A stretch of 64,000 nucleotides of DNA from a virus (IMGVR_UViG_3300044844_000928), one strand, 5' to 3'. Shown: positions 37,023-56,844, numbered from the stretch's first letter. Numbers and translations are program-made. The notes: a model not told the origin generated them from the sequence alone.

Positions 37023-37038
37023 GTACCTAAAATAAAAC

Positions 37039-39484: not shown

Positions 39485-39486
39485 AA

Positions 39487-40023
39487 ATGAACATCTGGCT
39501 TACTTCGGATTTGCACTTTGGGCATCACGGAATGTGTAAATTTTTAAATTATGATGGGAGTAAACTTAGACCATGGGATTCAATCGAAGAAATGGATGAA
39601 GTTTTGGTTGAAAGGTTCAACGAAAGGGTTAAACCAGAAGATAAATGTTACATTTTAGGTGATGTTGCTTTAAACTTGAGAGCGCTACCTATGTTAGAAC
39701 GGCTGAACTGTAAAAATTTGCGGTTGATTAAAGGGAATCATGATATTTTCAAATTGGACAAATATCTACCTTACTTTAAAGACATCAGGGCATATCATGT
39801 TATCGATAATATGCTACTTGGGCACATTCCCGTTCATCCGGATTGTTTAGGGCGGTGGGGATTTCAAATTCATGGACATTTACATAATGAAGTTGTACTT
39901 TTACCGGACGGAACTCCAGATAATAGGTATATGAACGTCAGTGTTGAAAGAACTGATTTTTACCCTATTTCGTTAGATGATATAATTGAAGAGAGAAAAA
40001 GACGTGGCATTCACGAATCATAA
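39487..40023 (+). CDS. Calcineurin-like metallophosphoesterase
   Basis: SDLHFGH, LGD, GNHD, HGHLH motifs. Confidence 0.9.
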   Translation: MNIWLTSDLHFGHHGMCKFLNYDGSKLRPWDSIEEMDEVLVERFNERVKPEDKCYILGDVALNLRALPMLERLNCKNLRLIKGNHDIFKLDKYLPYFKDIRAYHVIDNMLLGHIPVHPDCLGRWGFQIHGHLHNEVVLLPDGTPDNRYMNVSVERTDFYPISLDDIIEERKRRGIHES

Positions 40024-40345: not shown

Positions 40346-41210
40346 AATCCTCAGTAAGATATACCGGTAAAAACTTCAAAGCTTTATCAGATTTAATTCA
40401 CGACCACTGTAAACATGGGTCTATGGTTTACCGTAGAGGTGACGATGTTTTGATTGACGATATGATTATTCCTGTTGGATACTGTTTACATGTTGAAACG
40501 TCAGAACAAAGTGAACGGGTTTATATTAGCGCAGATTATTAAAAAAAGCTTTACTTTTTGCCCTCTCACGAGTATAATTGCTATTGTAGTTTAAATTTAT
40601 TATTAATTTTTGAGGTGATACCATGATTAGCGAGAAAGACGAATTGTTTTCGATTATTACTCCAATGCGTAAATCAAGAGAGCATTTGAACCGTAAAGTT
40701 AGGATTGACATGAAACGCGATAGATTCTATACATATAGAAAAATCCATTACGGCGATAGAATCCGTGTTGTTAACACTAATCCAATGGGGAGATAATATG
40801 AGCCTTATTACGCTTTCTGTTATAAATAACAACAAAAACCTTACGCTAGAAGCGGTTCGTCAACCTTATAAAATTGTTTTACGTGTTGAGGGTGATGTTT
40901 CTGATAACTTAGAAGGTATCGTTTACAACGACCTGTTTGAAGTTAATGCTGAAGATGATGCTACATACGAAAAAGCGATTGAGTTTTTAACCCGAAACAA
41001 ACTGGACTTCAAGGTGAAATTTTGAAAACATTTATATTATTGATTACAACTATGACGCATATAAACGGCGGCTATGACGTAAAAATTACGTCAACTGAAT
41101 TAAATAACGCATTAACATGTGAAAACGCCTTAAAAATTGAAAAGACTATTCTTGCTAGCATGTTCAGCGATATTTCAGGTTCGTATACATTACAGTGTAT
41201 TCAAAAGTAG
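40342..41210 (+). CDS. Small hypothetical ORFs (40342-40542, 40798-41025, 41022-41210)
   Basis: ORF track; a TTTACT-17-TATAAT promoter lies at about 40550-40578. Confidence 0.45.
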
Positions 41211-41271
41211 ATTTTACTTTTGACGCAAAATCATTTATTATATATTTTTATTTACATTACTAAGGAACATT

Positions 41272-41931
41272 ATGAAATTGTCAAAAGAAACCCAAGCAAT
41301 TCTAAAAAACTTTGCGTCTATTAATCCTAATGTGATGCTAAAACCTGGAAACAAACTTTCTACGGTTTCAGTACAAAAAAACATTATGGCTGATAGTGCT
41401 ATTGCTGAATCATTTGATACCACTTTTGGTATCTACGATATTTCAGAGTTCTTGGGTGCGGTTTCTTTGTTTAACGATCCTGAGTTGACATTTAACGATA
41501 AATATGTCACTATTGCTGAGGGCAATAACTCCATTAAATATTACTCAGCGGCTGAAAACGTTTTAACCGTACCGACTAAAGAAATTAAATTTCCTGATGC
41601 AGATATTGAGTTTGAGTTAACCGACAGTATGCTTGATATGATTAATCGTACAGCATCGGTATTGAAAGCGCAAGACTTAGCCTTAATTGGCGATGGCAAT
41701 AAGATTGTTATCCGAGTCGGCGATAAAAAGGTTGATTCGTCTAACGTGTATGAAGTTGAAGTTGGTTCCACTTCTACCACATTTAAAGTTTACCTAAAAA
41801 TTGGTTTGTTAAAATTAGTACACGGCGATTATACCGTATCTATCTCGACTAAAAAGATTTCAAGATTTAAACATAAAACCAAAGATACCGTGTATTTCCT
41901 TGCGGTTGAGTCAGATTCTTCATTCGAGTAA
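41272..41931 (+). CDS. 45: Sliding clamp gp45
   Basis: MKLSKET..ILKNFASIN, FGIYD..EFL. Confidence 0.95.
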   Translation: MKLSKETQAILKNFASINPNVMLKPGNKLSTVSVQKNIMADSAIAESFDTTFGIYDISEFLGAVSLFNDPELTFNDKYVTIAEGNNSIKYYSAAENVLTVPTKEIKFPDADIEFELTDSMLDMINRTASVLKAQDLALIGDGNKIVIRVGDKKVDSSNVYEVEVGSTSTTFKVYLKIGLLKLVHGDYTVSISTKKISRFKHKTKDTVYFLAVESDSSFE

Positions 41932-42001
41932 GATAGCCGGCTTGAAGCTGAGCCGATAATCAGCTTCAATTGTTTATTATGATATTATTGAGGATACATT
42001 T

Positions 42002-42952
42002 ATGAGTTTAGTAGCAAAACCAGAAGAATTCTTGTACGTTGAAAAATACCGTCCATCTAAAATTGAGGATTGTATTTTACCTGAACGAATGAAACAAACA
42101 TTAAAAGATATCGTGAAACAAGGCGAGATTCCTAATATGTTATTTTCAGGCGGCGCGGGTACTGGTAAAACTACAGCAGCATTTGCGCTTTGTAATGAAT
42201 TAGATGCTGACGTTTTATTCATTAACGCATCTATGGAGTCTGGTATTGATGTTCTTAGAAGTAAAATCCAATCATTTGCTTCTACTGTATCATTTGGCGG
42301 TGGCACTAAAGTTGTTATTCTTGATGAAGCTGACGGCTTAAACGCTAATTCTTTTCAGCCAGCATTGCGTGGTTTTATTGAAACTTTCAGCGCTAACTGT
42401 AGATTTATTCTTACTTGTAATTTTCCTCAAAAGTTGATTGCACCTATTCATTCAAGATGTACGGCTTTGAACTTCACTATTGAAAAAAGTGAGAAACAAG
42501 AGTTAGCGGCTAAATTCTTTAAAAGAGCATGTGCTATTCTTGTTGAAGAAAAAGTTGAATACGACCCAAAGGTGGTGGCTGAGGTTATTACTAAATTCTT
42601 CCCAGACTACCGTAGAGTTCTTAATGAATTACAGCGTTATTCTGTATCAGGTAAAATTGATTCTGGTATATTGTCTAACTTCAGTGATGATTCTTATAAA
42701 GCATTAATCGGCTATATAAAAGAAAAAAACTTTACTGAAGCTCGTAAATGGGTAGGTATGAATGATATTGATTGTGTAGAGTTATTCAGACATTTTTATG
42801 ATTATTCATCGACTTTGGTTGAGCCTAATTCTGTTCCTCAGTTGATTTTAATTATGGCAGACTATTCATATAAATCTGCTTTTGTTGCCGACCAAGAGTT
42901 AAATATCATGGCGGCGCTTACTGAAATTATGTCAAGTGTAAATTTCAAATGA
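42002..42952 (+). CDS. 44: Clamp loader large subunit gp44
   Basis: VEKYRP, GTGKTT, ILDEAD, SRC motifs. Confidence 0.96.
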   Translation: MSLVAKPEEFLYVEKYRPSKIEDCILPERMKQTLKDIVKQGEIPNMLFSGGAGTGKTTAAFALCNELDADVLFINASMESGIDVLRSKIQSFASTVSFGGGTKVVILDEADGLNANSFQPALRGFIETFSANCRFILTCNFPQKLIAPIHSRCTALNFTIEKSEKQELAAKFFKRACAILVEEKVEYDPKVVAEVITKFFPDYRRVLNELQRYSVSGKIDSGILSNFSDDSYKALIGYIKEKNFTEARKWVGMNDIDCVELFRHFYDYSSTLVEPNSVPQLILIMADYSYKSAFVADQELNIMAALTEIMSSVNFK

Positions 42953-43064
42953 ATACATTAGCTGTAATTATTAGCTGTATCATAAACGTTTTAACCGGTA
43001 TATGGTACACAGCTGAACAAATAATTAAATTTATTTCCCATCCTTTTGAGACATTACATAAATT

Positions 43065-43325
43065 ATGATTCAATTAATCTCTACTGTTTGTTTAATGGCG
43101 GCTTCTTTTTTTCTAGGTATGTTATACGGGCGCACTCTTAAGTCTGATGAGTTTGATGGCGCGAAATCTATTTATGTTAAAATAGAAAAACATTCTGACC
43201 TATTTTTCGCCTATGAAAATAAGACTTCAAAATATCTGGGTAAAAGCGATGATTATAACACTTTAATTCAGTATTTGAAAGATTCGTTTCCAGATTGCAT
43301 TATCTATATTATTGACCAAGAATAA
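43065..43325 (+). CDS. Hypothetical protein with N-terminal membrane anchor
   Basis: ORF track; hydrophobic N-terminus. Confidence 0.5.
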   Translation: MIQLISTVCLMAASFFLGMLYGRTLKSDEFDGAKSIYVKIEKHSDLFFAYENKTSKYLGKSDDYNTLIQYLKDSFPDCIIYIIDQE

Positions 43326-43372
43326 AAACTTATAAATAATAATGATGTCACATTTATATTATGGGATACACT

Positions 43373-43771
43373 ATGGCAAAATTGTTTGATTACTTAACAG
43401 CTATAAACTTCACGAAAGAAAATTTACTTGTTGATGAACAATCTGTTAAAGAATATACGCCTTTTATCATTAACAGGGGTTTATCTTATTATGTCGACAC
43501 GGTGTTACAGGCTAACGAAATGAACCGTTATCCTAATCTACCAAAAGATATGGCAAATGATTTTTTACTGGCGTCTATTAAAAAGAAAAAACGATTTTCT
43601 AAATGGGTCAAGAAAGCCGATAGTTCAGATGATTTGAATTTGGTGTGCGATTATTTTAATTACAGCAAAGAAAAAGGAGCGTTGGCTCTTACCTTATTAA
43701 CTGAAAGTCAAATTGATACTGTCAGAGAACAAATGGGTACGGGTGGGAAACAAAAACATGGAAAAGTATGA
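43373..43771 (+). CDS. 62: Clamp loader small subunit gp62
   Basis: Y.PFIINRGLSY..D....ANEMN..KKRFSKW. Confidence 0.92.
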   Translation: MAKLFDYLTAINFTKENLLVDEQSVKEYTPFIINRGLSYYVDTVLQANEMNRYPNLPKDMANDFLLASIKKKKRFSKWVKKADSSDDLNLVCDYFNYSKEKGALALTLLTESQIDTVREQMGTGGKQKHGKV

Positions 43772-44147
43772 TTTATTAGAAATCACATTAAAACAGCCTG
43801 ATGATTTTTTAAAGGTTCGTGAAACATTAAGCCGTATCGGTATTGCTTCTAAACAAGAAAAGAAACTTTACCAGACTGCTCATATATTACATAAACAGGG
43901 TAAATATTATCTGGTGCATTTTAAACAATTGTTTGAACTTGATAATAAGCCTACCTCTATATCAGATGATGATATTAAACGCAGGAACACAATTGCCAAA
44001 TTATTGAACGATTGGGGTTTACTAGAAATTGTCAATAAAGTTGACCTTGAAACTTGCTCACTAAATACCATAAAGATTCTTTCTTTTCAAGAGAAATCTG
44101 ACTGGGAACTATGCCCAAAATACAATTTGGGAAACAACAAATCTTAA
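43758..44147 (+). CDS. regA: Translational repressor RegA
   Basis: PDDFLKVRETL.RIGIAS..LYQ..HILHKQG.YY.VHFK. Confidence 0.96.
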   Translation: MEKYDLLEITLKQPDDFLKVRETLSRIGIASKQEKKLYQTAHILHKQGKYYLVHFKQLFELDNKPTSISDDDIKRRNTIAKLLNDWGLLEIVNKVDLETCSLNTIKILSFQEKSDWELCPKYNLGNNKS

Positions 44148-44164
44148 CCTTTTGGAATGACTAT

Positions 44165-44347
44165 ATGCTGATTACATTAGAATTACCTGTTGAAGAAGTG
44201 AATTTTATCCTTGAAATGCTTTCTGAAGAACCTTATCGTGATGTTAGTGAAATTATCGCTAAAATTCAACATCAGGGTCGTCCTCAAGTAGAAGCCGCAG
44301 AATTAGCGGCGGCTCAAGAAGAACAAGCTGAAGTAACTGAAGAATAA
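44165..44347 (+). CDS. Small acidic hypothetical protein
   Basis: L...PY..V..II.KI..Q..PQ pattern seen in phage proteins. Confidence 0.5.
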   Translation: MLITLELPVEEVNFILEMLSEEPYRDVSEIIAKIQHQGRPQVEAAELAAAQEEQAEVTEE

Positions 44348-44445
44348 ATAAAATGGAATAAAGGTTAGCGCCTTTATTTCTTAATGACATACTTAGATTG
44401 TGTCATTAAGAAATACTTTCCATCAAAATAGGATTATATATTACA

Positions 44446-44799
44446 ATGAATAAAATGCCACAGCTAATTGCTTTATTGTTTGATGCTAGAAATAAAGCAC
44501 ATATTGCACATTTACAAACAACAAGTTTTTCTCAACATAATGCGCTAAAGGAGTTCTACAGTGCAGTTATTGACATTGCGGATTCGCTTGCGGAAAATCA
44601 TCAAGGGAGAAATGGGATTATTAATGATTATCCTGTTGTTAATAACCCTAGTGATGCAGTCCAGTTGGTTTCTACCTTACGTTCTTGGGTAGATGCTAAT
44701 CGTGCTGATTGTGGGTCAGAAAATGAAATTCAAAACATTATAGATACTTTACAATCTTTGAACAACGAAACTTTGTATAAGCTAAACAACTTGAGATAA
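44446..44799 (+). CDS. Ferritin/Dps-like four-helix protein (DUF5856-like)
   Basis: AH..HLQT.S...H.AL..FY....D...E..QG; NIID.......YKL..L. Confidence 0.7.
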   Translation: MNKMPQLIALLFDARNKAHIAHLQTTSFSQHNALKEFYSAVIDIADSLAENHQGRNGIINDYPVVNNPSDAVQLVSTLRSWVDANRADCGSENEIQNIIDTLQSLNNETLYKLNNLR

Positions 44800-44803
44800 C
44801 ATT

Positions 44804-45049
44804 ATGAATATTTTTTCTAAAATCGGTCACGCTGTTAAACATGAAGCTGAAGCAGTTGGCAATGGCGTGGTTGATATTGCTACCGGTGTAGCGGCTAAAA
44901 CTGCTTATGATGCTATTGTATCAACTGGTACAGCCGCTGTAGAAGGAACTGTTGCCGCCGCTGGTACTGTAGCTGAAGTTGCTGGTAGCGCGGAAACTAT
45001 CGCGGTTTTGACAGAAGTGGGTGAAGTAGCGGCGATTGCTGCTCTTTAA
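44804..45049 (+). CDS. Ala/Val-rich hypothetical protein
   Basis: ORF track. Confidence 0.5.
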   Translation: MNIFSKIGHAVKHEAEAVGNGVVDIATGVAAKTAYDAIVSTGTAAVEGTVAAAGTVAEVAGSAETIAVLTEVGEVAAIAAL

Positions 45050-45056
45050 ATAAAAC

Positions 45057-45085
45057 TTTACTTTATTGTGTAAATAAATTATAAT
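45057..45085 (+). promoter_or_regulatory. Sigma70-type early promoter for the ncRNA/tRNA cluster
   Basis: TTTACT-17-TATAAT with an A-rich UP element. Confidence 0.75.
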
Positions 45086-45109
45086 ATACCTGTAGTTTGA
45101 GTTAAAGAG

Positions 45110-45727
45110 TTTTGGTAGCCTAGTCGGTTTGGATCGGGGTTACTATCAAAATTGGAAGCACTACCAATTAAAAGTGGCAAATGTATGTTCTGCGGAAAGC
45201 CTTAAAGCACAAAAAAGAACTGACAGTTTGGAAAGACAAACATTATGAAGCATAAGTATTACATTCTAGTCGGGTTTGTGGTCGTACTAGGCAGCACATG
45301 TAACTCCGTAAATACTTATGACTTGATAGTTGATGCGTAGGCTGATACGCACCGATGTGATGTAAGAGGGGAATAAGGCTATACGTTAATCCTTATTAAG
45401 CTGGAGTTCAGCGCCGGTAACTATCAATCTCCTTAGCCTGCTGGGAGAATAATAAGGCAGGAGTGTACCGAACCAGCTTGTGCACAGCGAGTGGACTGGT
45501 GACAGCTTGGAAAGACAAGCACTATGAATGATTGGTATTGTGCCGAGCGTGAAGATGCCCACTAGATAAGCGTGAGACTTGTAAAATCCCGCCAGTATCA
45601 ATGATTGATAGTTATTGCGTAGGCTGATACGCGCGGGAATTGACATCGCTTAATTGAACAGGGGAGCATACTAGGTTGCTCACTGGCAGAACCTTCTGCA
45701 AGCCGGAGATCAGCACCGGCAACTATC
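45110..45727 (+). ncRNA. Cluster of putative structured ncRNAs (two ~280-nt tandem units)
   Basis: No credible ORF, GC-richer than flanks, repeated scaffolds with compensatory changes (see findings). Confidence 0.75.
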
Positions 45728-45736
45728 TAAATTTAA

Positions 45737-45810
45737 GCGCCTTTAGCATAATTGGTTAATGCCGCGAACTCATAATTCGTAAGATCGGGGTTCGAGTCCC
45801 TGAGGGCGCA
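45737..45810 (+). tRNA. tRNA with CAT anticodon (Ile2 or elongator Met); CCA not encoded
   Basis: GCGCCTT/AGGGCGC acceptor stem, GCGAA-CTCATAA-TTCGT anticodon arm, GTTCGAG T-loop. Confidence 0.88.
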
Positions 45811-45916
45811 AAATTTTATATTAAATAAGTGTAGTTAGGTTGATATTCCCGTACCAACCAACTCAGTTACGGATTACCGAGCTGTCCTACACAAATTTAT
45901 ATATACGGATAAAAAT

Positions 45917-46615
45917 ATGTTCTACTTAGTTTATAAAATCACAAATAATATAAATCAAAAATATTATATTGGGTGTCATAAAACTACTAATGTTGATGAT
46001 GGGTATATGGGTTCTGGTGTGCTAATAAAAAGAGCAATATCTAAGTATGGAATAGAAAATTTCACTAAACAGATATTACATTACTGCTCAACTTCTGAAG
46101 AAATGTTTACTAAAGAATTTGAATTAGTTACTATTACAGAACAATCTTATAATTTAAAACTAGGTGGAAACGGCGGGTTTAACTATATTAACACACATAA
46201 TCTTAATAAACCAGAAAATTGGTGTTTAGAATCTGTTATTAGACACAAAAAAGGTTGTAAAAAAGGCGGCATTAAAAATAAAACTTTAGGTACTGGAATA
46301 TTTGGATTATCTTTTAAACAAAAATCTGAAATTGGTAAAAAGGCAAATGCAGCTACCCAATTAAAATTAATGGATACTATAGGATATAAATCTGTATTTG
46401 GTATATTAAACAAAGATGAAGAATTCCAATTAAAAAGAAAGGCTAAATTTTGTGAAATAGACCACCAAAAAGGTAATAAAAATTCACAATATGGCACTAT
46501 GTGGATTACAAATGGCGAATTTAATAGTAAAATTACAAAAGGATTAGATTTACCAGATGGGTGGATATTAGGCAGAAAAATTGGATTGCCATCTATTAAA
46601 ATTAGTTTAAAATAA
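45917..46615 (+). CDS. Seg-like GIY-YIG homing endonuclease
   Basis: YLVYKITN..N.KYYIG.H..Y.GSG..E; YNLK.GG; YGTMWITNG; sits in a tRNA cluster like T4 segB. Confidence 0.85.
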   Translation: MFYLVYKITNNINQKYYIGCHKTTNVDDGYMGSGVLIKRAISKYGIENFTKQILHYCSTSEEMFTKEFELVTITEQSYNLKLGGNGGFNYINTHNLNKPENWCLESVIRHKKGCKKGGIKNKTLGTGIFGLSFKQKSEIGKKANAATQLKLMDTIGYKSVFGILNKDEEFQLKRKAKFCEIDHQKGNKNSQYGTMWITNGEFNSKITKGLDLPDGWILGRKIGLPSIKISLK

Positions 46616-46722
46616 TGTTGCGGCAGTAGGTCAGCTCCGCGTTAAAAACCGAAATAACCAAACTGATGTTGTATTGTGGCGATAGGCTAGTCCCACGTTA
46701 AAAACTGAAATAACCAAACTGA
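46616..46722 (+). repeat. Tandem pair of hairpin plus A-rich tail units
   Basis: CGTTAAAAACYGAAATAACCAAACTGA occurs twice, each behind a covarying stem (GCGG/CCGC and GTGG/CCAC). Confidence 0.8.
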
Positions 46723-46727
46723 ATATT

Positions 46728-46803
46728 CTCTCTGTAGTGTAGTCTGGTAACATGATGCGTTTGGGGCGCATTGTCCGTCGTTCAAATCGACGCAGGGAGA
46801 CCA
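46728..46803 (+). tRNA. tRNA-Pro(TGG)
   Basis: CTCTCTG/CAGGGAG acceptor, ATGCG-TTTGGGG-CGCAT anticodon arm, TTCAAAT T-loop, CCA. Confidence 0.9.
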
Positions 46804-46809
46804 AATTAT

Positions 46810-46884
46810 TCCATCTAACGCACAAGGTGTGCGACCGGACTGTTAATCCGTGTGAGCGCGATTCGATTTCGTGAGATGGAGCCA
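46810..46884 (+). tRNA. tRNA-Asn(GTT)
   Basis: TCCATCT/AGATGGA acceptor, CGGA-CTGTTAA-TCCG anticodon arm, TTCGATT T-loop, GCCA end. Confidence 0.85.
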
Positions 46885-46890
46885 AATAAC

Positions 46891-46964
46891 GCCGGTATAG
46901 TATAATGATAATACAATTGACTTGTAATCTTTAAATCACAGTTTGATTCTGTGTACCGGCTCCA
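46891..46964 (+). tRNA. tRNA-Thr(TGT), atypical and possibly degenerate
   Basis: GCCGGTA/TACCGGC acceptor and CCA, but two mismatches in the anticodon stem, no GG in the D-loop and a TTTGA T-loop. Confidence 0.7.
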
Positions 46965-47119
46965 AATACCTGCGTTGGTTCTTACTTTTCGCTATTTTTG
47001 TAAGATTTAATAGGGGGAGACGTAGGATAAAAACATACTGTTTTAGTATGTTTTTTAAATAGCTAACTTGATTTGAATTTAACAAATTCTATTTTAATAT
47101 CCTTTTTTTGGAGAATAAC

Positions 47120-47878
47120 ATGTCAGCTACAATTGAAACTGTAAAAGCAGAAGCTAAAGAATCTTCACTTTTGAATAAAAAAGCTATGCTATTTGGTGCG
47201 TCATTATATATTGTGTTTTATGGATGGGTTCGTTGGTATGAAGGGGTTTACGGGTGGTCTGCTGGTTTAGACTCGTTTGCTCCAGAGTTTGAAACATACT
47301 GGATGAACTTCTTATACATAGAAATGGTTTTAGAGGTATTAACCGCGTCAATTTTATGGGGTTATATCTGGAAAAGTCGTGATCGTAAAGTGATGTCAAT
47401 CACACCACGTGAAGAATTGCGTCGTCATTTCACACATTGGGTATGGTTGGTAATGTACGGTATCGCAATTTATTATGGAGCATCATATTTTACTGAACAA
47501 GATGGTACATGGCATCAAACAATTGTTAGAGATACCGACTTTACTCCAAGTCATGTTATTGAGTTCTATTTAAGTTATCCGATTTATATTATTACTGGTG
47601 TTGCTTCGTTTTTATATGCTAAAACTCGTTTACCAACCTACCAAAAAGGCTTACCATTACAATATATGGTATCTGTAATTGGTCCATTTATGATTCTTCC
47701 AAACGTAGGTTTGAATGAATGGGGTCACACTTTCTGGTTTATGGAAGAATTGTTTGTTGCTCCTTTGCATTATGGATTTGTATTTTTTGGCTGGGCGGCT
47801 TTAGGCGTATTGGGCGTTGTTAATATCGAAGTAAAAGCAATTGCTAACTTATTGAAAAAAGACTTAGCTGTAGCATAG
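47120..47878 (+). CDS. pmoC: Particulate methane monooxygenase subunit C (auxiliary metabolic gene)
   Basis: GWSAGLDSFAPEFETYW; EQDGTWHQTIVRDTDFTPSH; PNVGLNEWGHTFWFMEELFVAPLHYGFV; ATG at 47120 behind a GGAG RBS. Confidence 0.98.
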   Translation: MSATIETVKAEAKESSLLNKKAMLFGASLYIVFYGWVRWYEGVYGWSAGLDSFAPEFETYWMNFLYIEMVLEVLTASILWGYIWKSRDRKVMSITPREELRRHFTHWVWLVMYGIAIYYGASYFTEQDGTWHQTIVRDTDFTPSHVIEFYLSYPIYIITGVASFLYAKTRLPTYQKGLPLQYMVSVIGPFMILPNVGLNEWGHTFWFMEELFVAPLHYGFVFFGWAALGVLGVVNIEVKAIANLLKKDLAVA

Positions 47879-47886
47879 CTATGTGG

Positions 47887-47921
47887 ATAGCGAATAGGGA
47901 ATAAAATCTCTATTCGCTATC
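47887..47921 (+). terminator. Hairpin after pmoC
   Basis: GATAGCGAATAGGGA-ATAAAA-TCTCTATTCGCTATC. Confidence 0.7.
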
Positions 47922-47962
47922 TCATACCCTAAATAATTCTATAGATGATTAAAGGAAAATTT

Positions 47963-48472
47963 ATGGAATTAAACGAAAAAAAGAACCCTCTTAGTTTTAA
48001 ATGCTGGAGAGATAAGCATAAAGAAGGAACTAAGATGAAAGGCGGTAAATTGGTTAACAACTGCGTGCCTAATGAAAGTTTTGAATTATCTTCTGACGAA
48101 ATGTTTGATATGATTGAAAGCACCATTGAAGAATACGCAAGCGAAAACGGGTTTACCAGTGAATATATTTGGGATATATTTGATGTCGTTAGCGATGACG
48201 AATTATTAGAATATGCGATTGATGCGAAAGGTCACAAAAGCTCTACTGGTGGGTTGACGCAAAAGGGCGTTGATGCGTATAGAAAAGAAAATCCAGGAAG
48301 TAAATTACAAATGGCGGTAACAACTCCACCTAGTAAATTAGATCCTGATAGCAAAGCAGCAAAAAGACGCAAAAGCTTTTGTGCCAGAATGAGTGGTGTA
48401 TCCGGACCAATGAAAGATAAAAATGGCAAACCAACAAGAAAGGCGTTAGCCTTAAAGAAATGGAATTGCTAA
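47963..48472 (+). CDS. Conserved T4-like late protein (GGL..KG...Y..RRKSFCARM family)
   Basis: CW....GTKMKGGK.V.NCVP and RRKSFCARM.G motifs; late promoter at 47929. Confidence 0.65.
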   Translation: MELNEKKNPLSFKCWRDKHKEGTKMKGGKLVNNCVPNESFELSSDEMFDMIESTIEEYASENGFTSEYIWDIFDVVSDDELLEYAIDAKGHKSSTGGLTQKGVDAYRKENPGSKLQMAVTTPPSKLDPDSKAAKRRKSFCARMSGVSGPMKDKNGKPTRKALALKKWNC

Positions 48473-48500
48473 AATAGTAGGCGGTAAAACGTTACTAAAT

Positions 48501-48638
48501 AGGTTTGGACAGTTCTACGTCAACGGAACTGACCGTGTAGCAATAGAAGCTACCATCCTCAATACGATAAGTTGAGCCACTTTAAACCTGTGTTGCCATT
48601 AGGAACACAATTCTTGCTTTTTATAAAGGAGATTTTAT
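48501..48638 (+). promoter_or_regulatory. Structured hsp20 5' UTR with a ROSE-like thermometer hairpin
   Basis: Cloverleaf at 48501-48589; CTTGCT lies opposite the AGGAG SD (48613-48631). Confidence 0.65.
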
Positions 48639-49055
48639 ATGACACATCCAATTTTAGTATTAAAAGAAATACAAAACCAAATCGCTAGACAGGAAAAGGT
48701 TAATTATCCACCATACAATATTAAATATGTGGACGATTTTAATACCGTTGTAGAAATAGCGCTTGCCGGCTTATCGGAAGATGATATTTCAATCTTGCTA
48801 GAAAAACAGGTTTTAACAGTTTCTTATTCTGCTAAAACTGATGCAGCTGAATCAAAATATTTTCATAAGGGTATTAGCTCAAAATCATTTAGTCGTAGCT
48901 TTACGCTAGACGTTGATTCTGTAGTCAAAGGTGCTGATATGAATAATGGTTTACTAAGTATCTATATTAACAAAGTTATCCCAGAAAGTTTAAAACCAAA
49001 ACAAATTCTGATTAATAACAAATCTAATCCTCAATTATTAACTGAAGCGAAATAA
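48639..49055 (+). CDS. hsp20: Small heat-shock protein Hsp20 (IbpA-like)
   Basis: NYPPYNI, EIALAG, HKGI..KSF.RSF.L, A.M.NGLL.I. Confidence 0.93.
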   Translation: MTHPILVLKEIQNQIARQEKVNYPPYNIKYVDDFNTVVEIALAGLSEDDISILLEKQVLTVSYSAKTDAAESKYFHKGISSKSFSRSFTLDVDSVVKGADMNNGLLSIYINKVIPESLKPKQILINNKSNPQLLTEAK

Positions 49056-49060
49056 ACTAT

Positions 49061-49369
49061 ATGACTACAACTGTAATTGCTCTAAAATTAACAACCGGTG
49101 AAGACGTTTTAACCCGTTTGGAATCTGAGGATGAATTTGAATATGTGACTTCATACCCTGCGTATGTAAGTATCGGCACAAACCCAGATGGTCAATCTGG
49201 CGTACAAATCGCGCCGTTTATTGCGTTCGCTGTTGACGGCAAAGTGAAAATTAAAAAATCTGCGGTTGCGGCTGAAGCTGAACCAGATTCTAAACTTGCA
49301 GATGAATATACAAAATTGTTTCATCCTGGCACTATACAGTTGGTTTCGAACGGTAAAATTATTGTTTAA
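49061..49369 (+). CDS. Conserved T4-like hypothetical protein (Sm-like)
   Basis: LKL.TGEDV N-terminus; typical position after hsp20. Confidence 0.6.
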   Translation: MTTTVIALKLTTGEDVLTRLESEDEFEYVTSYPAYVSIGTNPDGQSGVQIAPFIAFAVDGKVKIKKSAVAAEAEPDSKLADEYTKLFHPGTIQLVSNGKIIV

Positions 49370-49393
49370 TGATAAACATAATTGACTAATTTT

Positions 49394-49431
49394 AAAAGGT
49401 TCACAGTTTAATTGCTGTGAACCTTTTTTTT
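49394..49431. terminator. Bidirectional terminator
   Basis: AAAAGGTTCACAG...CTGTGAACCTTTTTT between convergent genes. Confidence 0.8.
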
Positions 49432-50008
49432 ACTTTATTTTGCAGTTGTCAAAATGCCATCGTTTCATTACACTCACTCCACCAGTTTTACCGCAATGTG
49501 GACATGTTATTTGTTTTTTCGGTTTACGCATTTTGGCTTTAGTTTCTTCTGATTGAGGTTTACCCTTATTAGCAGCAGATATTTTGGCTTTATGCTCATC
49601 TGACTTAGGTTTGCGCATTTTGACTTTAGATTCTTCTGTGTGCATTTTACCCTTTTTAGCTTCAGACATTTTGGATTTAGTTTCGTCTGTATGTTTCACA
49701 CTTCCGCCATCCAATCCATTTTCTGGCATCATATTTGCCCATTTTTTAGAATTGACAATATCGTTTTCTGCAGAAAACTTTAAGGCGAATTCAGCGATAG
49801 ATGTGTCTGTGTAAGGTTCCGAAACCCAAAGAGTAACGATGTGTTCTTTACCGTGGACTTTGATGTGGTTACACCAGTATTTGCCTGAGCCATTGTATGT
49901 GTATGGGTCTTTTATTGTTTTCCCAAAATACTTTAAGCCGGTTATGGAATGTTGTTTGATATAGAGATAGGTGGGATCTATTGCGGTATAAATACTTGTG
50001 CTGGTCAT
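49430..50008 (-). CDS. Putative homing endonuclease, paralogue of 34316-35056
   Basis: PTYLYIKQHSITGLKYFGKT, NUMOD3-type repeats, CPHC zinc finger. Confidence 0.75.
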   Translation of the reverse strand: MTSTSIYTAIDPTYLYIKQHSITGLKYFGKTIKDPYTYNGSGKYWCNHIKVHGKEHIVTLWVSEPYTDTSIAEFALKFSAENDIVNSKKWANMMPENGLDGGSVKHTDETKSKMSEAKKGKMHTEESKVKMRKPKSDEHKAKISAANKGKPQSEETKAKMRKPKKQITCPHCGKTGGVSVMKRWHFDNCKIK

Positions 50009-50096
50009 GGTAATTCCTTTTATCGTTAGAATGATTAGTGCTGGTGGATATGGGGATATCGCGACCAGCTTTTTTTGTACAAAATATTTAGTAAAA
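49986..50096. repeat. Nuclease-associated cassette, copy 2
   Basis: Same scaffold as 35034-35147, with compensatory stem changes. Confidence 0.9.
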
Positions 50097-50127
50097 TACT
50101 AATTTTAACTTAACATATGGAAATTGT

Positions 50128-50817
50128 ATGGCAACCACAAGCAAAATTAAAAAATCTCGTCAAACTGCTCCTACTTTTGAACTTGACGAATTACAACCTG
50201 CCGAAATTGTTACCTTAACACATAACCAAAAACGCTACCTGAATTCGATAAAAACAAACGTATTGACTTTTGGTACAGGTTCTGCTGGAACAGGTAAGTC
50301 TTATGTTGCTATTGCTTACGCCGCTGAATTATTAAAAGCCAAAAAGATTAATAAAATTGTTCTCACTAGACCTATTCAAGAAGCTGGTGAACATTTAGGA
50401 TTTCTTCCAGGAGAATTAGAAGAAAAAACCTTGCCATATCTTCAGCCAATGTTGGATATTTTAAACAAAAGATTAGGCGCTTCTTTTACTGAATATTTGT
50501 TCAAACGGAAAATTATTGAATTTAGACCGTTAGCCTATATGCGAGGAAGTACATTTGAAGACAGTTTTATTATTCTTGATGAAGCACAAAATGTGAGTCC
50601 AGTTTCTATGAAAATGTTTTTATCAAGAATTGGAGAAAATAGTAAAGTTGTAGTTGATGGCGACATTCAACAAAAAGACATCAAAGGTGCTTCTGGTTTA
50701 TCTGATGCTGTTGATAGGTTGAAACATCTGAATAATGTAGGATGGGTTAATTTTGATATTGATGACATTGTTAGATCAGGTATCTGTAAAGATATTGTAA
50801 TTGCGTATTCCAATTAA
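50128..50817 (+). CDS. phoH: PhoH-family ATPase
   Basis: GSAGTGKS, LGFLPG, MRGSTF, LDEAQN, GD..Q.D, DIVRS. Confidence 0.95.
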   Translation: MATTSKIKKSRQTAPTFELDELQPAEIVTLTHNQKRYLNSIKTNVLTFGTGSAGTGKSYVAIAYAAELLKAKKINKIVLTRPIQEAGEHLGFLPGELEEKTLPYLQPMLDILNKRLGASFTEYLFKRKIIEFRPLAYMRGSTFEDSFIILDEAQNVSPVSMKMFLSRIGENSKVVVDGDIQQKDIKGASGLSDAVDRLKHLNNVGWVNFDIDDIVRSGICKDIVIAYSN

Positions 50818-50868
50818 AACAAAGCCGGCATAATAGCCGGCTTTTTTACACGTAAATTATTTTGTAAT

Positions 50869-52107
50869 TTACTGGCAATTGATTGGTATCCCATATTCTT
50901 TTACGAAATTTTTATCTAGGTAAATATTTATGTTTTTGTCAATTCTATAAAATTTAATCCTATTTCCATTTGGTGTAAATAATTTTACGTGTATAGTATC
51001 ATCGTAATCATTTGGATGTATATCTAATAATGATTTTAGCTGTGTGTGATAAACTATAATGCATTTATTTTTGGTTGGATCATAATCAAAATATCCAGGA
51101 GGATTTGGGCACATTTTATTTACAAATTTAAACTTCCCATTAATATCATATTTTCTAATTCCAATATTTCTTGATACAAACGGTTGTATGTGGTGTGCAT
51201 TAATATCTAATGGGTCTATCATTTCAAATTGATTAGATAAAATATTATAAAACAATGTAGAATAATTTTTTTCTTTATAGCGGCGCAGACGTTTTCTTTT
51301 TTCTGGTGTTAATACTACAGCTGGATATTTTTTTGATTTACGAGTTGCTGATATTTTAGCACCTATACGTTTCTTGTGCTCATTTGATCTATTTGCCCAT
51401 ATTTTTGTAACAATGTCACTTAAAATTTGTTTTGATTTTGTTATTGTCCAACCATCAAATAAAAGACGTTCGTATTCATCTGAATACTTAAACACTTCTA
51501 TTTCATTTTGCTCATAGTATAATTTTATTTTTGTGGTTTTTGAATGATAGCATTTCAGACTTGTTGATGTTAATTCTTTAGATGTTTCTGTTCTTGGTTT
51601 ATATGTTCTGCCTGTTGACATTGATACAAATTCTTTAGATACAACTCTAGGATCTGTTACTGAGCAATAAAATATAGCTCCATTGTTGTCAATATACGCG
51701 GCTTTACCTTTAGTGGATGTAGAACAATTTTGTGAAAATTCTATTTTAAAATTTTCATAAATTTTTGAATGTACATTATATGTGCGTTTTCTTGAATCTT
51801 TTGGCGATTGTTTGTTGCACATTGCCCAAAAGGCAAAAATTTGTGATCCTTTGTATGTTTTTGCTAATAAGTAATGAGCAATATAATGTTGTCGGTGTGT
51901 TAAATTTACAGCGTTCCATTTATTTGATTTGAATGATGCATATTCAGGAAAAAGATCATTTGCCTTTGGACAAATGTGATGTTTTTGTGTCTTATATTTT
52001 ATTGGAGGTTGATTGACATAATTTGATATAAATTTTATATATCTATTAAGATAATGTTGATTGTGTGGTTTGCTTGATAATATGGTATAAATACTTGTGC
52101 TGGTCAT
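50869..52107 (-). CDS. Putative HNH homing endonuclease (Mob-like)
   Basis: HHICPK...N.V.LT.RQHYIAH.LL; start at MTSTSIY (52107). Confidence 0.78.
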   Translation of the reverse strand: MTSTSIYTILSSKPHNQHYLNRYIKFISNYVNQPPIKYKTQKHHICPKANDLFPEYASFKSNKWNAVNLTHRQHYIAHYLLAKTYKGSQIFAFWAMCNKQSPKDSRKRTYNVHSKIYENFKIEFSQNCSTSTKGKAAYIDNNGAIFYCSVTDPRVVSKEFVSMSTGRTYKPRTETSKELTSTSLKCYHSKTTKIKLYYEQNEIEVFKYSDEYERLLFDGWTITKSKQILSDIVTKIWANRSNEHKKRIGAKISATRKSKKYPAVVLTPEKRKRLRRYKEKNYSTLFYNILSNQFEMIDPLDINAHHIQPFVSRNIGIRKYDINGKFKFVNKMCPNPPGYFDYDPTKNKCIIVYHTQLKSLLDIHPNDYDDTIHVKLFTPNGNRIKFYRIDKNINIYLDKNFVKEYGIPINCQ

Positions 52108-52195
52108 GGTAGATCCTTTTATCGATAGAATGATTAGTGCCACTGGGATGTAGGAGTCCGCGAGTGGCTTTTTTTGTACAAAATATTTAGTAAAA
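52085..52195. repeat. Nuclease-associated cassette, copy 3
   Basis: Same scaffold, here attached to an HNH gene. Confidence 0.9.
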
Positions 52196-52274
52196 ATAAA
52201 GCTTTACTTTTGGAAAAAACCGAGTATAATAGATCTTAATAAATAAGTAAGGTCAATATTAAAATGAGGTTCAA

Positions 52275-52616
52275 ATGTTAAGTTATACCGAATTCAAAAA
52301 TTTAAATGAAGCGGCTAAACCTAAAAAAGAAGCGCCGCTGAAAATCAGAAAAGTTAATTCAGATTGGTATCGTATTTCTATTGAGAAAAATAGTTTAGGG
52401 ATTGATTCTTCGGTTGTTGATATTTACAGAACAAGATTTAATGAATGGTCGGTAAATGAAGGGCAACCAGAATCATTTAAGAAAGTTGGCGATAAAGAAA
52501 GTTGGGTGTTTTCTAAATTAGCAACAGCTAAAAAGTATGCGCTTGATTTAGCTCAAGCGATTAAAGATGGCCAACCATGGCCAAGAATATCTAGCGGCAA
52601 TTATAGTGATTATTGA
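52275..52616 (+). CDS. Putative internal head protein
   Basis: N-terminus MLSYTEFKNLNE resembles the T4 capsid-targeting sequence. Confidence 0.55.
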   Translation: MLSYTEFKNLNEAAKPKKEAPLKIRKVNSDWYRISIEKNSLGIDSSVVDIYRTRFNEWSVNEGQPESFKKVGDKESWVFSKLATAKKYALDLAQAIKDGQPWPRISSGNYSDY

Positions 52617-52617
52617 T

Positions 52618-52917
52618 ATGTTAAGTTACAAAAAATTCAAAGAGTTAAATGAATCTGTAGTTAAATTCTATTCGGCTACGATTTCAGGTGGTCCAGGATT
52701 TACTGGAATTAGCGGTAAAGGAAACAAAGATGCTGTGGTATTTATTAACAGCAAAGGGGAATTTGGTTTCTTAGAAGGTAAAGACACTCCATATACTCCA
52801 AGCGGGGGTAGAAAGGTTTGGGATATGGTAAAAGATGCTTTACAGTTTAAACCATACGATTGGGGCGACCCAAGTAAAGGCGGATATTCCGTCAAACGTG
52901 GCGCTGAGTTAAAATAA
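52618..52917 (+). CDS. Putative internal head protein
   Basis: N-terminus MLSYKKFKELNE; start moved to 52618. Confidence 0.55.
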   Translation: MLSYKKFKELNESVVKFYSATISGGPGFTGISGKGNKDAVVFINSKGEFGFLEGKDTPYTPSGGRKVWDMVKDALQFKPYDWGDPSKGGYSVKRGAELK

Positions 52918-52930
52918 GAGGAATAAAATA

Positions 52931-53347
52931 ATGGATTTTCAAGAATTTAAAAATTCGGTCTTAGAAGAAGTAAGACACGGTAAAGTAATACAATTTGCGT
53001 CAAAGGCGCATGATATGTGGCGTAACCAACATATCAAAACTAATGGCGATGTTCCAAGAGTAAAAAAGAACAGCGACAGCACTGAAGGGGATATTAATGT
53101 ATCTTTTCACAAACTTCATCCAGATTGGAAAAAAGAAAATGTTGCTGCAGGTAAAGCCGCATTGGCTGCGGTTAAAAAACACCCAAATAATTTAGAAAAA
53201 GCCTCAGAACACGTGCATAACGAATGGATGAAACGTAATCCTAAACAAGATTATAATGCTCATCAACATAAACCATATAAAGATCTTCCAGAAGACGAAA
53301 AAGAAAAAGATAGAGTTCATGTTCGTCTTATGAAATCGTTAAAATAA
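52931..53347 (+). CDS. Putative internal head protein with RyR-like motifs
   Basis: MDFQEFKNSVLEE; H..W...PY.DLPEDEKEKDR. Confidence 0.5.
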   Translation: MDFQEFKNSVLEEVRHGKVIQFASKAHDMWRNQHIKTNGDVPRVKKNSDSTEGDINVSFHKLHPDWKKENVAAGKAALAAVKKHPNNLEKASEHVHNEWMKRNPKQDYNAHQHKPYKDLPEDEKEKDRVHVRLMKSLK

Positions 53348-53394
53348 TAATAAAGCCGGCTTAATTGTCGGCTTTTTCACATATAAAATAAAAC

Positions 53395-53454
53395 TTTACT
53401 TTATAGACCAATAAGACTATAATAGCCTAGTCGGGCGTGAATTGAGGTTAAGCG
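53395..53454 (+). repeat. Class A element, copy 4
   Basis: TTTACT at 53395, TATAAT at 53418, 31-mer to 53454; lies between a terminator and the class B promoter at 53490. Confidence 0.9.
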
Positions 53455-53561
53455 GGGTTAATTAATTTAAAAATAATTAAAAATAAAGCTTTACTTTTCT
53501 ATAAAACAGAGTATAATAGATATTAATGAAGTTATCCCTTGAATTAATTGGAGTGTTTGAT

Positions 53562-55103
53562 ATGTTTGGTATATATTTGAAAGGCGGCAGTATCGGTTCA
53601 AAAAGTGGTAAAGATAATATCTTATTCATTTTTGAAACTAAAGAAGAAGCAAAGGAACGCGCAAAAGACTGGAATAAAATGCTGACTCCTGGTGAAAAAT
53701 CATACTACGGTATGCGCTATATGGTTGTGACTCTTTAATTTTAATTTGAGGATATTATAATGGAAGCAATAGTTTTAACATTTTTACTATATTTTACACC
53801 GTCTCAAGTTGACCACGGCACTCCAGAAAAAATTACTATGGGATTTCAATCCTATGCTGAGTGTGAGTTTTATCTTGAACAGCATAAACCAGAAATTGAA
53901 CATGCGTTGGTTGACGGTTTATTAGGTTACTCAGCAAAATGCGAAATGGGTGAATAAATGAAAAAATTTGAAAAGTCTAATATGAAAATTGTGCTTGATA
54001 CTTTAGATGAAACAATTAAAAAAAGATGTAAACTGGCAGATAAATATCAAGCAAGTGGCGATCCGGTTAAGCATAAAATTGCCGCCGCCTTAGAAAATAA
54101 CCTTGACACTCTAGTAAAAATAAAATCTGAAATTATCCGCGCTGAAAAAGCCGCTGAAACTATTATATTTGGAGATTAAAATGGAAACTGCTGAATTTGT
54201 TGTTCCTTTAGTAAATAAAACATACACCGCCTTTGAAACCCAATATGCGGAAGGTTCTTTATTTGTAGTTGAAGCCTTACGTTGGGGTGACCGTGAAAAT
54301 CATAGTTATGTGATTGGTGTTTTCAATACTCGTGGGCAAGCGGAGTTAGCCGGTGAAGCTGAAGTGTCTTGGAGAGGAAATAAATATGAATATTGTATCA
54401 GTGAGCATAAACTAAATTTTATCCCTAAAGATAAACTTGATAATCATGCTGGGTGTAAATAATGAGCAATGTGAAATATTATTTTTTAGGTGATACCAGT
54501 TTAGCAAGAACTAATGTTATCACTATTGCATACGAAACAGATTATATGACAGGCGCTAACGGCTCAAAAATACCTGTTGTGACATTTGGTGTAGCCTTTT
54601 CTTCTAAGGTTGATGTGTATAGTAAAAAAGTAGGTAAACGGATTGCGGTAAATCGTATGCGTAGCCAACCGCGCAGAGAATGTTTAGAAAATTTTAGTTT
54701 TTACTGCATTGAAGATGCCATGTTTAAAAACATTTTAAATAACGAAGCGCCTACTTGGGCATGCTGTGTTATTTATGCTAAAATTGATTTTGCGTATAAT
54801 GAAATGCTAAACTTTCTTGCTATTGAAGCAGTTGCTAACAATTTGGAAACTATTGGGAAATTTACTTCACAAACTCCAAAAATTATTCAAGAAAATTGGT
54901 GGGGTGCAGTTGAATACGCTAAAGAGCATTGCTATAATGGGTGGCGTTTACCTACGGCAGCAGAATTGAAGAAATTGAATCTTGATGGAGAATTTTGGGC
55001 TTGTGATGGAACTGATGACGATCGTTCTGTATTCTTTTCTAACGGATTCATTTATCGGGGTGATAAAAGCGATACGCATAATGTAATTTTGGTTCGCGAC
55101 TAG
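53562..55103 (+). CDS. Five early hypothetical ORFs; the last (54462-55103) has a DUF1566/Lcl-like C-terminus
   Basis: W..A..Y......GWRLPT..EL in the last ORF. Confidence 0.5.
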
Positions 55104-55232
55104 TAATTAAGCCGGCTATATGTCGGCTTTTTCATGCCTAAAAATAATTTAAAATAAAGCTTTACTTTTGCGAAAAATAGAGTATAATAGATCTTAATGA
55201 AGTTATCCCTTAAATTAATTGGAGTGTATAAA

Positions 55233-55433
55233 ATGTCTACTGTAACCGCTGAAATTATTGAAACCCGTTCAAGAATTCTTGGAAAACTTTTTACTGCTAA
55301 AGTGTATGTTCCAATTGAAGGATATTACTCTATGGAAAAGTTATACTTCAATGGTAACACTAAAACTGAAGCAAAACGTAAAGCAAAGGCGGCGCTGAAA
55401 GTTTTAGGTTATACCGTACAATTTGGAGCATAA
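55233..55433 (+). CDS. Small basic early protein, paralogue A
   Basis: KVY.P.E...FNG.TKTEAK..A..A.K.LGY, shared with the next ORF. Confidence 0.65.
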   Translation: MSTVTAEIIETRSRILGKLFTAKVYVPIEGYYSMEKLYFNGNTKTEAKRKAKAALKVLGYTVQFGA

Positions 55434-55434
55434 T

Positions 55435-55635
55435 ATGCAAAATGTAAAAGCTGAAATCGGTAAAACAAAAGGAAAATTCCCTGAAAGATTTTTTATTGTT
55501 AAGGTGTATATTCCTGTTGAAAATGGTTCTTCAATGAAAATATCGTTTTTTAATGGAAAAACAAAAACTGAAGCAAAACATAATGCTGAAAAGGCAATGA
55601 AAACTTTGGGATATAAAATAAAATTTAAGGTATAA
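55435..55635 (+). CDS. Small basic early protein, paralogue B
   Basis: Tandem paralogue of 55233-55433. Confidence 0.65.
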   Translation: MQNVKAEIGKTKGKFPERFFIVKVYIPVENGSSMKISFFNGKTKTEAKHNAEKAMKTLGYKIKFKV

Positions 55636-55636
55636 T

Positions 55637-56017
55637 ATGCAACTTCCATTCAATTTATACGTTTATCATGATGATGTTAATAATAAAGGATTAACTTTAG
55701 GCGGGGATTATCCTTATAAAGCTAGGATTAACGCTACTGAAGTAGAATGGATTCCGATATATGATGAAGGCGATTATCGTTATATGATGAGAAATAAGTC
55801 TGAAATTTTCAAATACAACGAAAACGGCGATACCTTTGATGACGTATCTTATTATGAAGCGGAATACTCTACTGTCATTCAAAGCGACGATGAAACAGGA
55901 AACCCAATATATAATATTGTTGAAAGGTTTTATAATCCGTTAGATTGTAATGCTGGAATTTTAATATCATTTCCATATTATCTATTTGTAATCAAACAAT
56001 ACGAGGAACTATTCTAA
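55637..56017 (+). CDS. Hypothetical protein
   Basis: ORF track. Confidence 0.5.
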   Translation: MQLPFNLYVYHDDVNNKGLTLGGDYPYKARINATEVEWIPIYDEGDYRYMMRNKSEIFKYNENGDTFDDVSYYEAEYSTVIQSDDETGNPIYNIVERFYNPLDCNAGILISFPYYLFVIKQYEELF

Positions 56018-56145
56018 TGAAAACATATATCTTATTTATGATAGCGCTATTATTAACCGGTTGCGCCACATACGCACCATATCCACATCATTATCGCGGC
56101 TATTATTACGTCCCACACCATCATCACCATTACTCTCGTTGGTGA
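56017..56145 (+). CDS. 42-aa His/Tyr-rich lipoprotein (not in the ORF track)
   Basis: MKTYILFMIALLLTG-CATYAPYPHHYRGYYYVPHHHHHYSRW; GAGG RBS; TAATG translational coupling. Confidence 0.65.
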   Translation: MKTYILFMIALLLTGCATYAPYPHHYRGYYYVPHHHHHYSRW

Positions 56146-56238
56146 CATTATGAACGAAGTTACTGATTCAGAAGTTGTAATATTATTTTCGTTATTCGTG
56201 GCGTGGGTGTTTGTTTATTTTATTTGGGATGATGGTCA

Positions 56239-56631: not shown

Positions 56632-56836
56632 ATGGGAAGATGCCCCAAACTGGGCGCGGTATTTATGCAAAGATACTGACCATAAATGGCACTGGTTCGA
56701 GTTTTCTCCAACCTTAGTAGACGGAAAATGGATAACTGGATTTAAAACCAAACGTCTTTTTATTCAAAAGTTTAAGACCTCTATTTCTCCAGAAAATACC
56801 TATGAAACTCGTCCCCAAAAATTTATTTACAAATAA
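56618..56836 (+). CDS. Hypothetical protein (PKW.DAP.WA family)
   Basis: KPKWEDAPNWARYL..D....W.W.E. Confidence 0.55.
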   Translation: MSKPKWEDAPNWARYLCKDTDHKWHWFEFSPTLVDGKWITGFKTKRLFIQKFKTSISPENTYETRPQKFIYK

Positions 56837-56844
56837 GGAATATT

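Follow-up and report, generated by a model that had tools for sequence, protein, structure and literature searches.

A stand-alone pmoC in a T4-like phage as a probable auxiliary gene for methane oxidation in a methanotroph host

What use would a phage have for pmoC, the gene of the C subunit of pMMO, when neither pmoA nor pmoB is found in the surrounding 64 kb? The question is raised by a 64,000-nucleotide stretch of viral DNA (hereafter the window, with coordinates counted from its first letter), in which pmoC lies at 47120..47878 on the plus strand. Phages with this gene have been described before (22 pmoC-phages with genomes of 159-527 kb; Chen et al. 2020, Nat Microbiol, PMC7674155), and an earlier note on this DNA rightly called the gene notable but not new: the window is a further pmoC-phage of a kind known since 2020, and the gene itself changes nothing known. 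Like the gamma-type phages of T4-like size in that account, it has a pmoC that stands alone over its 64 kb, in a cyanophage-related myovirus of ~34-36% GC, tRNA genes, hsp20 nearby, and a PmoC that is >86% identical to bacterial PmoC, keeps Asp156, His160 and His173 and diverges at its termini (PMC7674155). Beyond that account go the CuD ligands, a cassette of hairpins and late promoter, a DUF6321 neighbour and the intron nature of the genes called fragmented.

The gene product and its copper sites

The reading frame comprises 252 codons from the ATG at 47120 to a TAG at 47876-47878 and is intact, without an intron. An upstream TTG (47108) falls within the Shine-Dalgarno region of pmoC, and homologues begin at the ATG. 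The AmoC profile (Pfam PF04896) aligns with the protein over profile positions 6-245 of 245 with an E-value of 8.2e-123, scoring 409 bits against a curated cut-off of 26.7. In addition, 250 residues align without gaps to 6cxh_C / 7s4l_C (E 5e-154), the C subunit of the Methylotuvimicrobium alcaliphilum pMMO. Identity to the PmoC of bacterial loci is 88% for Methylotuvimicrobium and 86-88% for Methylotuvimicrobium / Methylomicrobium.

Two metal-site motifs are present, D128-x3-H132-x12-H145 and N199-x3-H203-x13-H217. Because the alignment to 1yew_C is ungapped, with a constant offset of +28, these residues can be equated with the six CuC and CuD ligands. In M. capsulatus Bath numbering, D128, H132 and H145 become Asp156, His160 and His173, the CuC ligands, and N199, H203 and H217 become Asn227, His231 and His245, the CuD ligands, as defined in cryo-EM structures of pMMO (PMC12576850). 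Equivalents of Arg165 and Phe177 are likewise present. The profile match and the six mapped ligands bear out the claim of the earlier note that this is a full-length PmoC with both metal sites intact.

The partner genes are missing from the window, as had also been claimed. A tblastn search (E<=1e-3) with the M. buryatense 5G subunits PmoA and PmoB gave no match within the 64-kb window, nor in any of 80 viral pmoC loci, whereas both pmoA and pmoB stand beside pmoC in 72 of 80 bacterial loci. No PmoC match was found by tblastn among 50,697 GenBank phage records and the PmoC family is absent from PHROGs, so cultured-phage resources cannot place this protein. In its 250 ungapped residues and full set of ligands the phage protein resembles operon-encoded Methylococcaceae PmoC (6CXH, 7S4L), and it differs from it in having no adjacent pmoA or pmoB, in its phage promoter and phage codon composition, and in phage-specific terminal residues together with two extra residues at the C-terminus.

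Conservation, selection and introns

The window protein retains 170 of the 176 alignment columns that do not vary across 80 bacterial PmoC, and the six that are broken all lie at residues 2-22 and 243. Ten residues that occur in none of the 80 bacterial sequences are likewise all terminal, at positions 2-25 and 239-243; among the terminal residues, S2, T7 and E11 are common to most of the phage clade. Divergent PmoC termini, termed cytoplasmic, were noted by Chen et al. 2020 (PMC7674155).

Between the window pmoC and that of a close viral relative (L002), dS is 0.67 and dN 0.014 (dN/dS 0.02). Against L003-L011, dS rises to 0.8-1.5, and dN between the window and the other phage copies spans 0.014-0.079. 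Across all phage-phage pairs dN/dS is 0.02-0.06, the synonymous distances between phage copies being saturating. The window pmoC is under strong, long-term purifying selection within phages. Preservation of the entire catalytic core in this way would not be expected of a decaying passenger or a mere decoy.

We consider it probable that pmoC is a host-derived auxiliary metabolic gene that would sustain pMMO methane oxidation in the infected methanotroph; the residue conservation and the selection fit such a role, and the earlier suggestion that the gene acts during infection is plausible. A T4-like myophage with a probable freshwater Methylococcaceae host would carry pmoC as a self-contained cassette and make PmoC late in infection, at a stage by which transcription of host genes has presumably ceased. 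The phage subunit would join host PmoA and PmoB, either in new enzyme or in replacement of a labile subunit, and methane oxidation, hence reducing power and carbon, would persist until lysis. Late supply of the active-site subunit has already been proposed for pmoC-phages (Chen et al. 2020, PMC7674155). The working model for cyanophage psbA (D1) is alike in that a T4-like phage encodes a labile active-site membrane subunit and keeps host energy flowing; enzyme and host are different here, and the role of phage PmoC is a proposed one. For psbA, both expression and incorporation of the protein have been demonstrated experimentally.

The terminal residues invite another, distinctly less likely reading, in which phage PmoC alters rather than raises catalysis, as a regulatory or condition-specific isoform or as a takeover subunit that redirects pMMO. 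As an isoform, its divergent termini might change assembly, stability or regulation, in the manner of methanotroph orphan pmoC copies; as a takeover subunit, it might redirect pMMO when metal is scarce, or so as to curb oxidative damage. The ten residues foreign to bacterial PmoC, and the occurrence of three phage residues in most of the clade, are what such a protein could show, and the idea was raised for divergent termini by Chen et al. 2020, who suggested that phage pmoC may act like orphan copies (PMC7674155), which also lie apart from pmoAB. Conversely, all ligands and the whole membrane core are conserved at a dN/dS of 0.02-0.06, as would be expected of a subunit used in catalysis. The nearest bacterial relatives, moreover, are operon-linked pmoC genes and not orphan copies, so that among the 80 loci sampled the window pmoC does not come from an orphan lineage.

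In related viral loci, the pmoC genes that look 'split' contain group I introns of 249-258 nt that lack an ORF. The Rfam model RF00028 (gathering score 50) scores 69-94 bits in L009, L013 and L039 and twice in L041. The introns occupy L009:6659-6916, L013:6615-6863 (with L014, L015 and L021 interrupted at the same site), L025:6643-6893, L039:6130-6382, and L041:6611-6859 and 6913-7164. Removal at the predicted sites, after a U at the upstream exon end and after the G that closes the intron, restores a conserved PmoC in frame on reading of the sequence, and the intron 3' ends are all ...CATAATG or ...CATAGG. The six sites lie between Gly45 and Trp46, within Phe205, within Phe207, between Ala213 and Pro214, at the Gly219/Phe220 boundary and between Gly224 and Trp225; five of the six are in or just past the CuD segment. 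The window pmoC has an intron at none of them.

A seventh site is probably represented by P0023, a 209-aa database protein that matches residues 1-202 of the window PmoC with one substitution (V108I) and then reads YQGSLKQ-stop. Its frame breaks after Gly202, just before the His203 codon, as would be expected of an intron at that codon in a very close relative of the window phage. If this site does hold an intron, the window allele would be the intron-minus form of a polymorphic site. For the coding DNA of P0023 no metagenome copy above 95% was found, and two pattern scans gave no match. Chen et al. 2020 termed such pmoC genes fragmented and never used the word intron (PMC7674155); group I introns are the most likely explanation of those genes. 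Among the papers searched, none combined 'pmoC' with 'group I intron'. Cyanophage psbA, like the pmoC of these relatives, carries a group I intron.

That pmoC is a neutral passenger, accidentally and recently captured, without a role for the phage and heading to decay, is very improbable. Published phage pmoC genes that are partial (LM_8) or variable within a population (CB_5) could be read in this way (PMC7674155), as could the late-promoter motif of the window, which is mutated relative to that of its relative L001. Against this, the phage copies have diverged by 0.7-1.5 at synonymous sites with a dN of only 0.01-0.08; the codon composition of pmoC has moved to that of the phage; gene and non-coding cassette are kept across backbones that share only 37-60% identity in the head protein; and 'fragmented' genes prove to be intron-split, not decayed.

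The cassette and its setting in the phage genome

A hairpin at 47029..47055 on the plus strand, following tRNA-Thr, has a 12-bp stem and a 3-nt loop, runs into a T-run and looks like a terminator (-9.7 kcal/mol, z -3.1). It is kept in 12 aligned phage loci while its stem sequence varies, with compensatory double changes in 4 of 9 pairs. Behind pmoC, a second hairpin at 47880..47926 (plus strand) comprises 20 pairs and is more stable still (-25.9 kcal/mol, z -6.2; 0 of 200 shuffles were as stable). No T-run follows it in the window phage, whereas one has been added in L005 and L008; its position is kept in L001-L005, L007, L008 and L011, with differing stem sequences. The hairpins that the earlier note had placed on either side of pmoC are thus both found.

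The same note had pointed to a late-promoter-like TTAAATA, which does occur, at 47055-47061, inside the TTTAAATA at 47054..47061 (plus strand), 66 nt before the start codon. This octamer is a one-base variant of TATAAATA, the -10 element of T4 late promoters. At the aligned site, exact TATAAATA stands in 9 of 12 sequences (L001-L005, L007, L009, L013 and L015), GCTAAATA in L011 and TTTAAATA in the window. Elsewhere in the window, the genes for sheath, head and further structural proteins have NCTAAATA / NNTAAATA 35-74 nt ahead of them; ACTAAATA, GCTAAATA or GTTAAATA occurs at 7469, 13062, 23259, 25519, 31490, 32341 and 44060, in each case 35-66 nt ahead of structural and other plus-strand genes. 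This pattern suggests that the late promoter of this phage is NCTAAATA/NNTAAATA rather than strict TATAAATA, a form familiar from marine T4-like cyanophages. Because the same core precedes the structural genes, the TAAATA core of the window TTTAAATA is plausibly functional; this variant promoter may be weak. Window-wide, TATAAATA is a consensus match that is not enriched (15 found against 12.5 expected), and the promoter argument therefore rests on the comparative alignment and not on counts.

The Shine-Dalgarno sequence GGAG (47110..47113, plus strand) lies 6 nt before the ATG and is kept in the leaders of phage and bacterial pmoC. Further upstream, resemblance to the pmoC loci of bacteria is lost over the first few tens of bases before the start codon, and the 5' hairpin and promoter are phage-only, being missing from the bacterial loci. 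In relatives a second TATAAATA stands between the 3' hairpin and the DUF6321 gene, where the window has TATAGATG. With hairpins at both ends and a promoter-like site of its own upstream, pmoC reads as a monocistronic cassette under a putative late promoter. In Lake Rotsee phages pmoC is co-expressed with structural genes (Chen et al. 2020, PMC7674155), which the promoter context of the window would fit.

The surroundings are those of a phage. The window encodes a T4-type portal (PHROG 213, E 5e-192), a major head protein (PHROG 138, E 7e-157), a tail sheath (PHROG 23) and baseplate and fibre proteins; genes for the gp45 clamp and the gp44/gp62 clamp loader come shortly before the pmoC region. 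The head protein is ~62% identical to those of T4-like cyanophages (P-TIM40, P-RSM6, S-SZBM1) and also to those of Methylophilales and Pelagibacter myophages, and the genes together mark the source as a T4-like myophage related to cyanophages. The AT-rich, phage-like codons noted earlier are confirmed: pmoC has 36% GC and a GC3 of 0.276, inside the 0.21-0.32 of other window genes and below the 0.32-0.37 of the nearest bacterial pmoC.

An assembly chimera or mis-binned bacterial DNA, in which a bacterial pmoC was joined to phage sequence by the assembler, was named in the earlier note among the things that would undo its reading, and its probability is now negligible. Phage scaffolds do often break at pmoC, owing to the close similarity of the bacterial copies (Chen et al. 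2020, PMC7674155), and the nearest phage record, G001, is without pmoC; that record ends near window position 45351, ~1.8 kb before pmoC, and for this reason cannot show a pmoC-minus allele. L001, however, a viral locus from a different metagenome, matches the window over 41001-45351 at 99% and over 46610-48737 at 94%, and so contains pmoC with both flanks and both junctions; the pmoC-DUF6321 junction is common to seven further loci. The nearest bacterial pmoC is only 77-84% identical to the window gene in nucleotides, the GC3 is phage-like, and the leader of hairpin and late promoter does not occur in bacterial loci.

Upstream of pmoC, all on the plus strand, lie tRNA-Met (45737-45810), a SegE-like GIY-YIG homing endonuclease gene (45917-46615; Pfam SegE_GIY-YIG, PHROG 314), tRNA-Pro (46728-46803) and tRNA-Thr (46891-46964), the tRNAs being called by both ARAGORN and Rfam. 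Downstream follow, on the same strand, a gene of unknown function with a DUF6321 domain (47945..48472; Pfam PF19846, E 9.7e-24; PHROG 4689) and hsp20, for a small heat-shock protein (48639..49055; Pfam PF00011, E 2.6e-13; PHROG 432), which is a core gene of the phage group. The context first described, after a tRNA cluster and upstream of hsp20, is accordingly correct on the first count and needs an amendment on the second, as the DUF6321 gene intervenes. In the clade, its place downstream of pmoC is conserved, at a distance of 70-115 nt in L001-L004 and L007 and of 825 nt in L015/L021. L034-L036 have a homologue of 39% identity upstream, encoded on the other strand.

The 1258 bp at 45352-46609, which contain tRNA-Met and the SegE-like nuclease, have no aligned counterpart in L001, where ~355 bp stand instead. 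Since L001 is otherwise 94-99% identical, this has the appearance of a typical free-standing nuclease insertion polymorphism. A pmoC-linked homing system including the SegE-like nuclease was considered and rejected, because none of 80 viral pmoC loci has a homologue of that nuclease. In all, three homing-endonuclease genes, at 45917-46615 (plus strand), 49430-50008 (minus) and 50869-52143 (minus), of GIY-YIG/NUMOD3 and HNH-like type (PHROG 314 and 655), lie in ~5 kb around pmoC, hsp20 and phoH, and they mark a hyperplastic region around pmoC.

Three further features were looked at. Just ahead of tRNA-Met, the window is gene-free at 45050-45730, with a GC of 0.42-0.43 against ~0.34, and Rfam gave no match there at the gathering threshold. 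A search for pqqA returned a sole six-frame pattern match, which sits inside a 237-aa ORF, and hence the window has no pqqA. A small exported-peptide gene behind pmoC is impossible, as the mere 66 nt to the next ORF are filled by the hairpin.

Origin, host and significance

A quick maximum-likelihood tree of 117 PmoC sequences, with SH-aLRT support, groups the window PmoC with L001 and L002 (97). A viral clade of ten encloses this group with moderate support (85), and is itself nested among PmoC from pmoCAB loci of freshwater Methylococcaceae, in MAGs that bear the label Methylobacter or Methylomonas or are unnamed lake bins. Of these, L081/L083 come closest to the window protein, at 92% amino acid identity, and the GC of the nearest bacterial loci, at 37-40%, is nearer to that of the phage than the GC of Methylotuvimicrobium is.

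Nested among Methylococcaceae pmoCAB genes, and with better E-values to pMMO than to AMO, the window protein is best classed as a methanotroph PmoC and not as AmoC or PxmC. The alternative of an amoC or pxmC with a role in an ammonia oxidiser or in pXMO, and not in methane oxidation, can be dismissed, although Pfam does not separate AmoC from PmoC and amoC-phages exist (bioRxiv 10.64898/2026.06.18.733297), since solved AMO C subunits score 2e-71 or weaker against 5e-154 for pMMO C subunits and, in the tree, the protein falls within Methylococcaceae genes that have pmoA and pmoB behind them in the order pmoCAB. The viruses of Thaumarchaeota and the freshwater amoC-phages (bioRxiv 10.64898/2026.06.18.733297) are similar in that the virus carries a C subunit only; they differ in pathway (ammonia) and host, and the window protein groups with PmoC.

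The host is most likely a gammaproteobacterial methanotroph, probably of the freshwater Methylococcaceae. The assignment is supported at family level, because PmoC is nested in that family and a strongly selected protein of this kind needs PmoA and PmoB partners. This much of the earlier proposal stands; PmoC is too conserved for the genus to be named. Spacer matching, which the earlier note had suggested as a check, gave no CRISPR link in a low-sensitivity search with two candidates scored per genome, in which window 44001-64000 was compared with the 4 nearest methanotroph genomes and window 1-20000 with 346 genomes of the methanotroph family. Of the matches, three that were 30-33 nt long were looked at closely (G003:C70, G104:C92 and G280:C183), and none lay in a repeat array.

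Two matches to bacterial bins deserve mention in their own right. Window 54129-54159 shares 30 of 31 bases with G003:C70:14639-14669 (L161:2140-2170), the end of a small phage ORF (...EIIRAEKAA...) matching the apparent 3' end of a chromosomal CDS. G003, the MAG of a freshwater methanotroph, encodes one of the PmoC closest to that of the window; the match may have arisen by chance or be a fragment of host DNA. In a same-family bin, the 54.6-kb contig G009:C53 matches window 8480-12306, in tail-fibre-like genes, with collinear patches of 72-95% nucleotide identity at its positions 36904-39742 (L164). A related phage binned together with a methanotroph, or what is left of a prophage, could account for this contig, whose support for a host link is weak at best.

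The cassette is also present in quite different phages. G348, a 126-kb record estimated to be 71% complete and belonging to a T4-like phage of roughly 180 kb, has a PmoC of the same clade with the same leader and a head protein 60% identical to that of the window; G349, a complete 372-kb jumbo phage with terminal repeats, shares the PmoC clade and leader with a head protein only 37% identical. PmoC clade members are 88-98% identical in amino acids and have a homologous non-coding leader. It is conceivable, though we hold it with some doubt, that pmoC travels between phages as a self-contained late-gene cassette, in preference to repeated capture from hosts, and that its adjacency to hsp20 perhaps reflects a functional partnership. 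The travelling unit would consist of the structure-conserved hairpin, a T4-type late promoter, the leader, perhaps in part of host-gene origin, pmoC and the 3' hairpin. On this view, introns at six or more sites and nearby homing nucleases would point to the locus as a hot spot for exchange between phages. The support for the viral clade is moderate, and cassette exchange is for that reason suggested only.

As to hsp20, in 26 alpha-type viral pmoC loci (among L044-L080) its start lies 194-366 nt behind pmoC. The Hsp20 proteins of the window and of these loci are 33-41% identical, and their PmoC, which belong to different classes, 58-60%. The adjacency in both lineages could be due to a shared insertion hot spot or to a functional link; a partnership of PmoC with Hsp20, rather than shared ancestry, might explain why pmoC is upstream of hsp20 in alpha and gamma lineages alike. 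Chen et al. 2020 had recorded the adjacency in six phages and discounted it (PMC7674155).

The window adds to the known pmoC-phages a clean, full-length and intron-free gamma-type pmoC with both copper sites, together with quantitative evidence of long-term purifying selection inside phages. Its cassette of putative promoter and terminator-like hairpin predicts late expression of pmoC, and the gene is a convenient allele for expression of phage PmoC, the structure of the Methylotuvimicrobium enzyme having been solved. Aerobic methanotrophs remove much of the methane of lakes before it reaches the air, and a phage-borne gene for the active-site subunit of pMMO could keep up or increase methane oxidation in infected cells.
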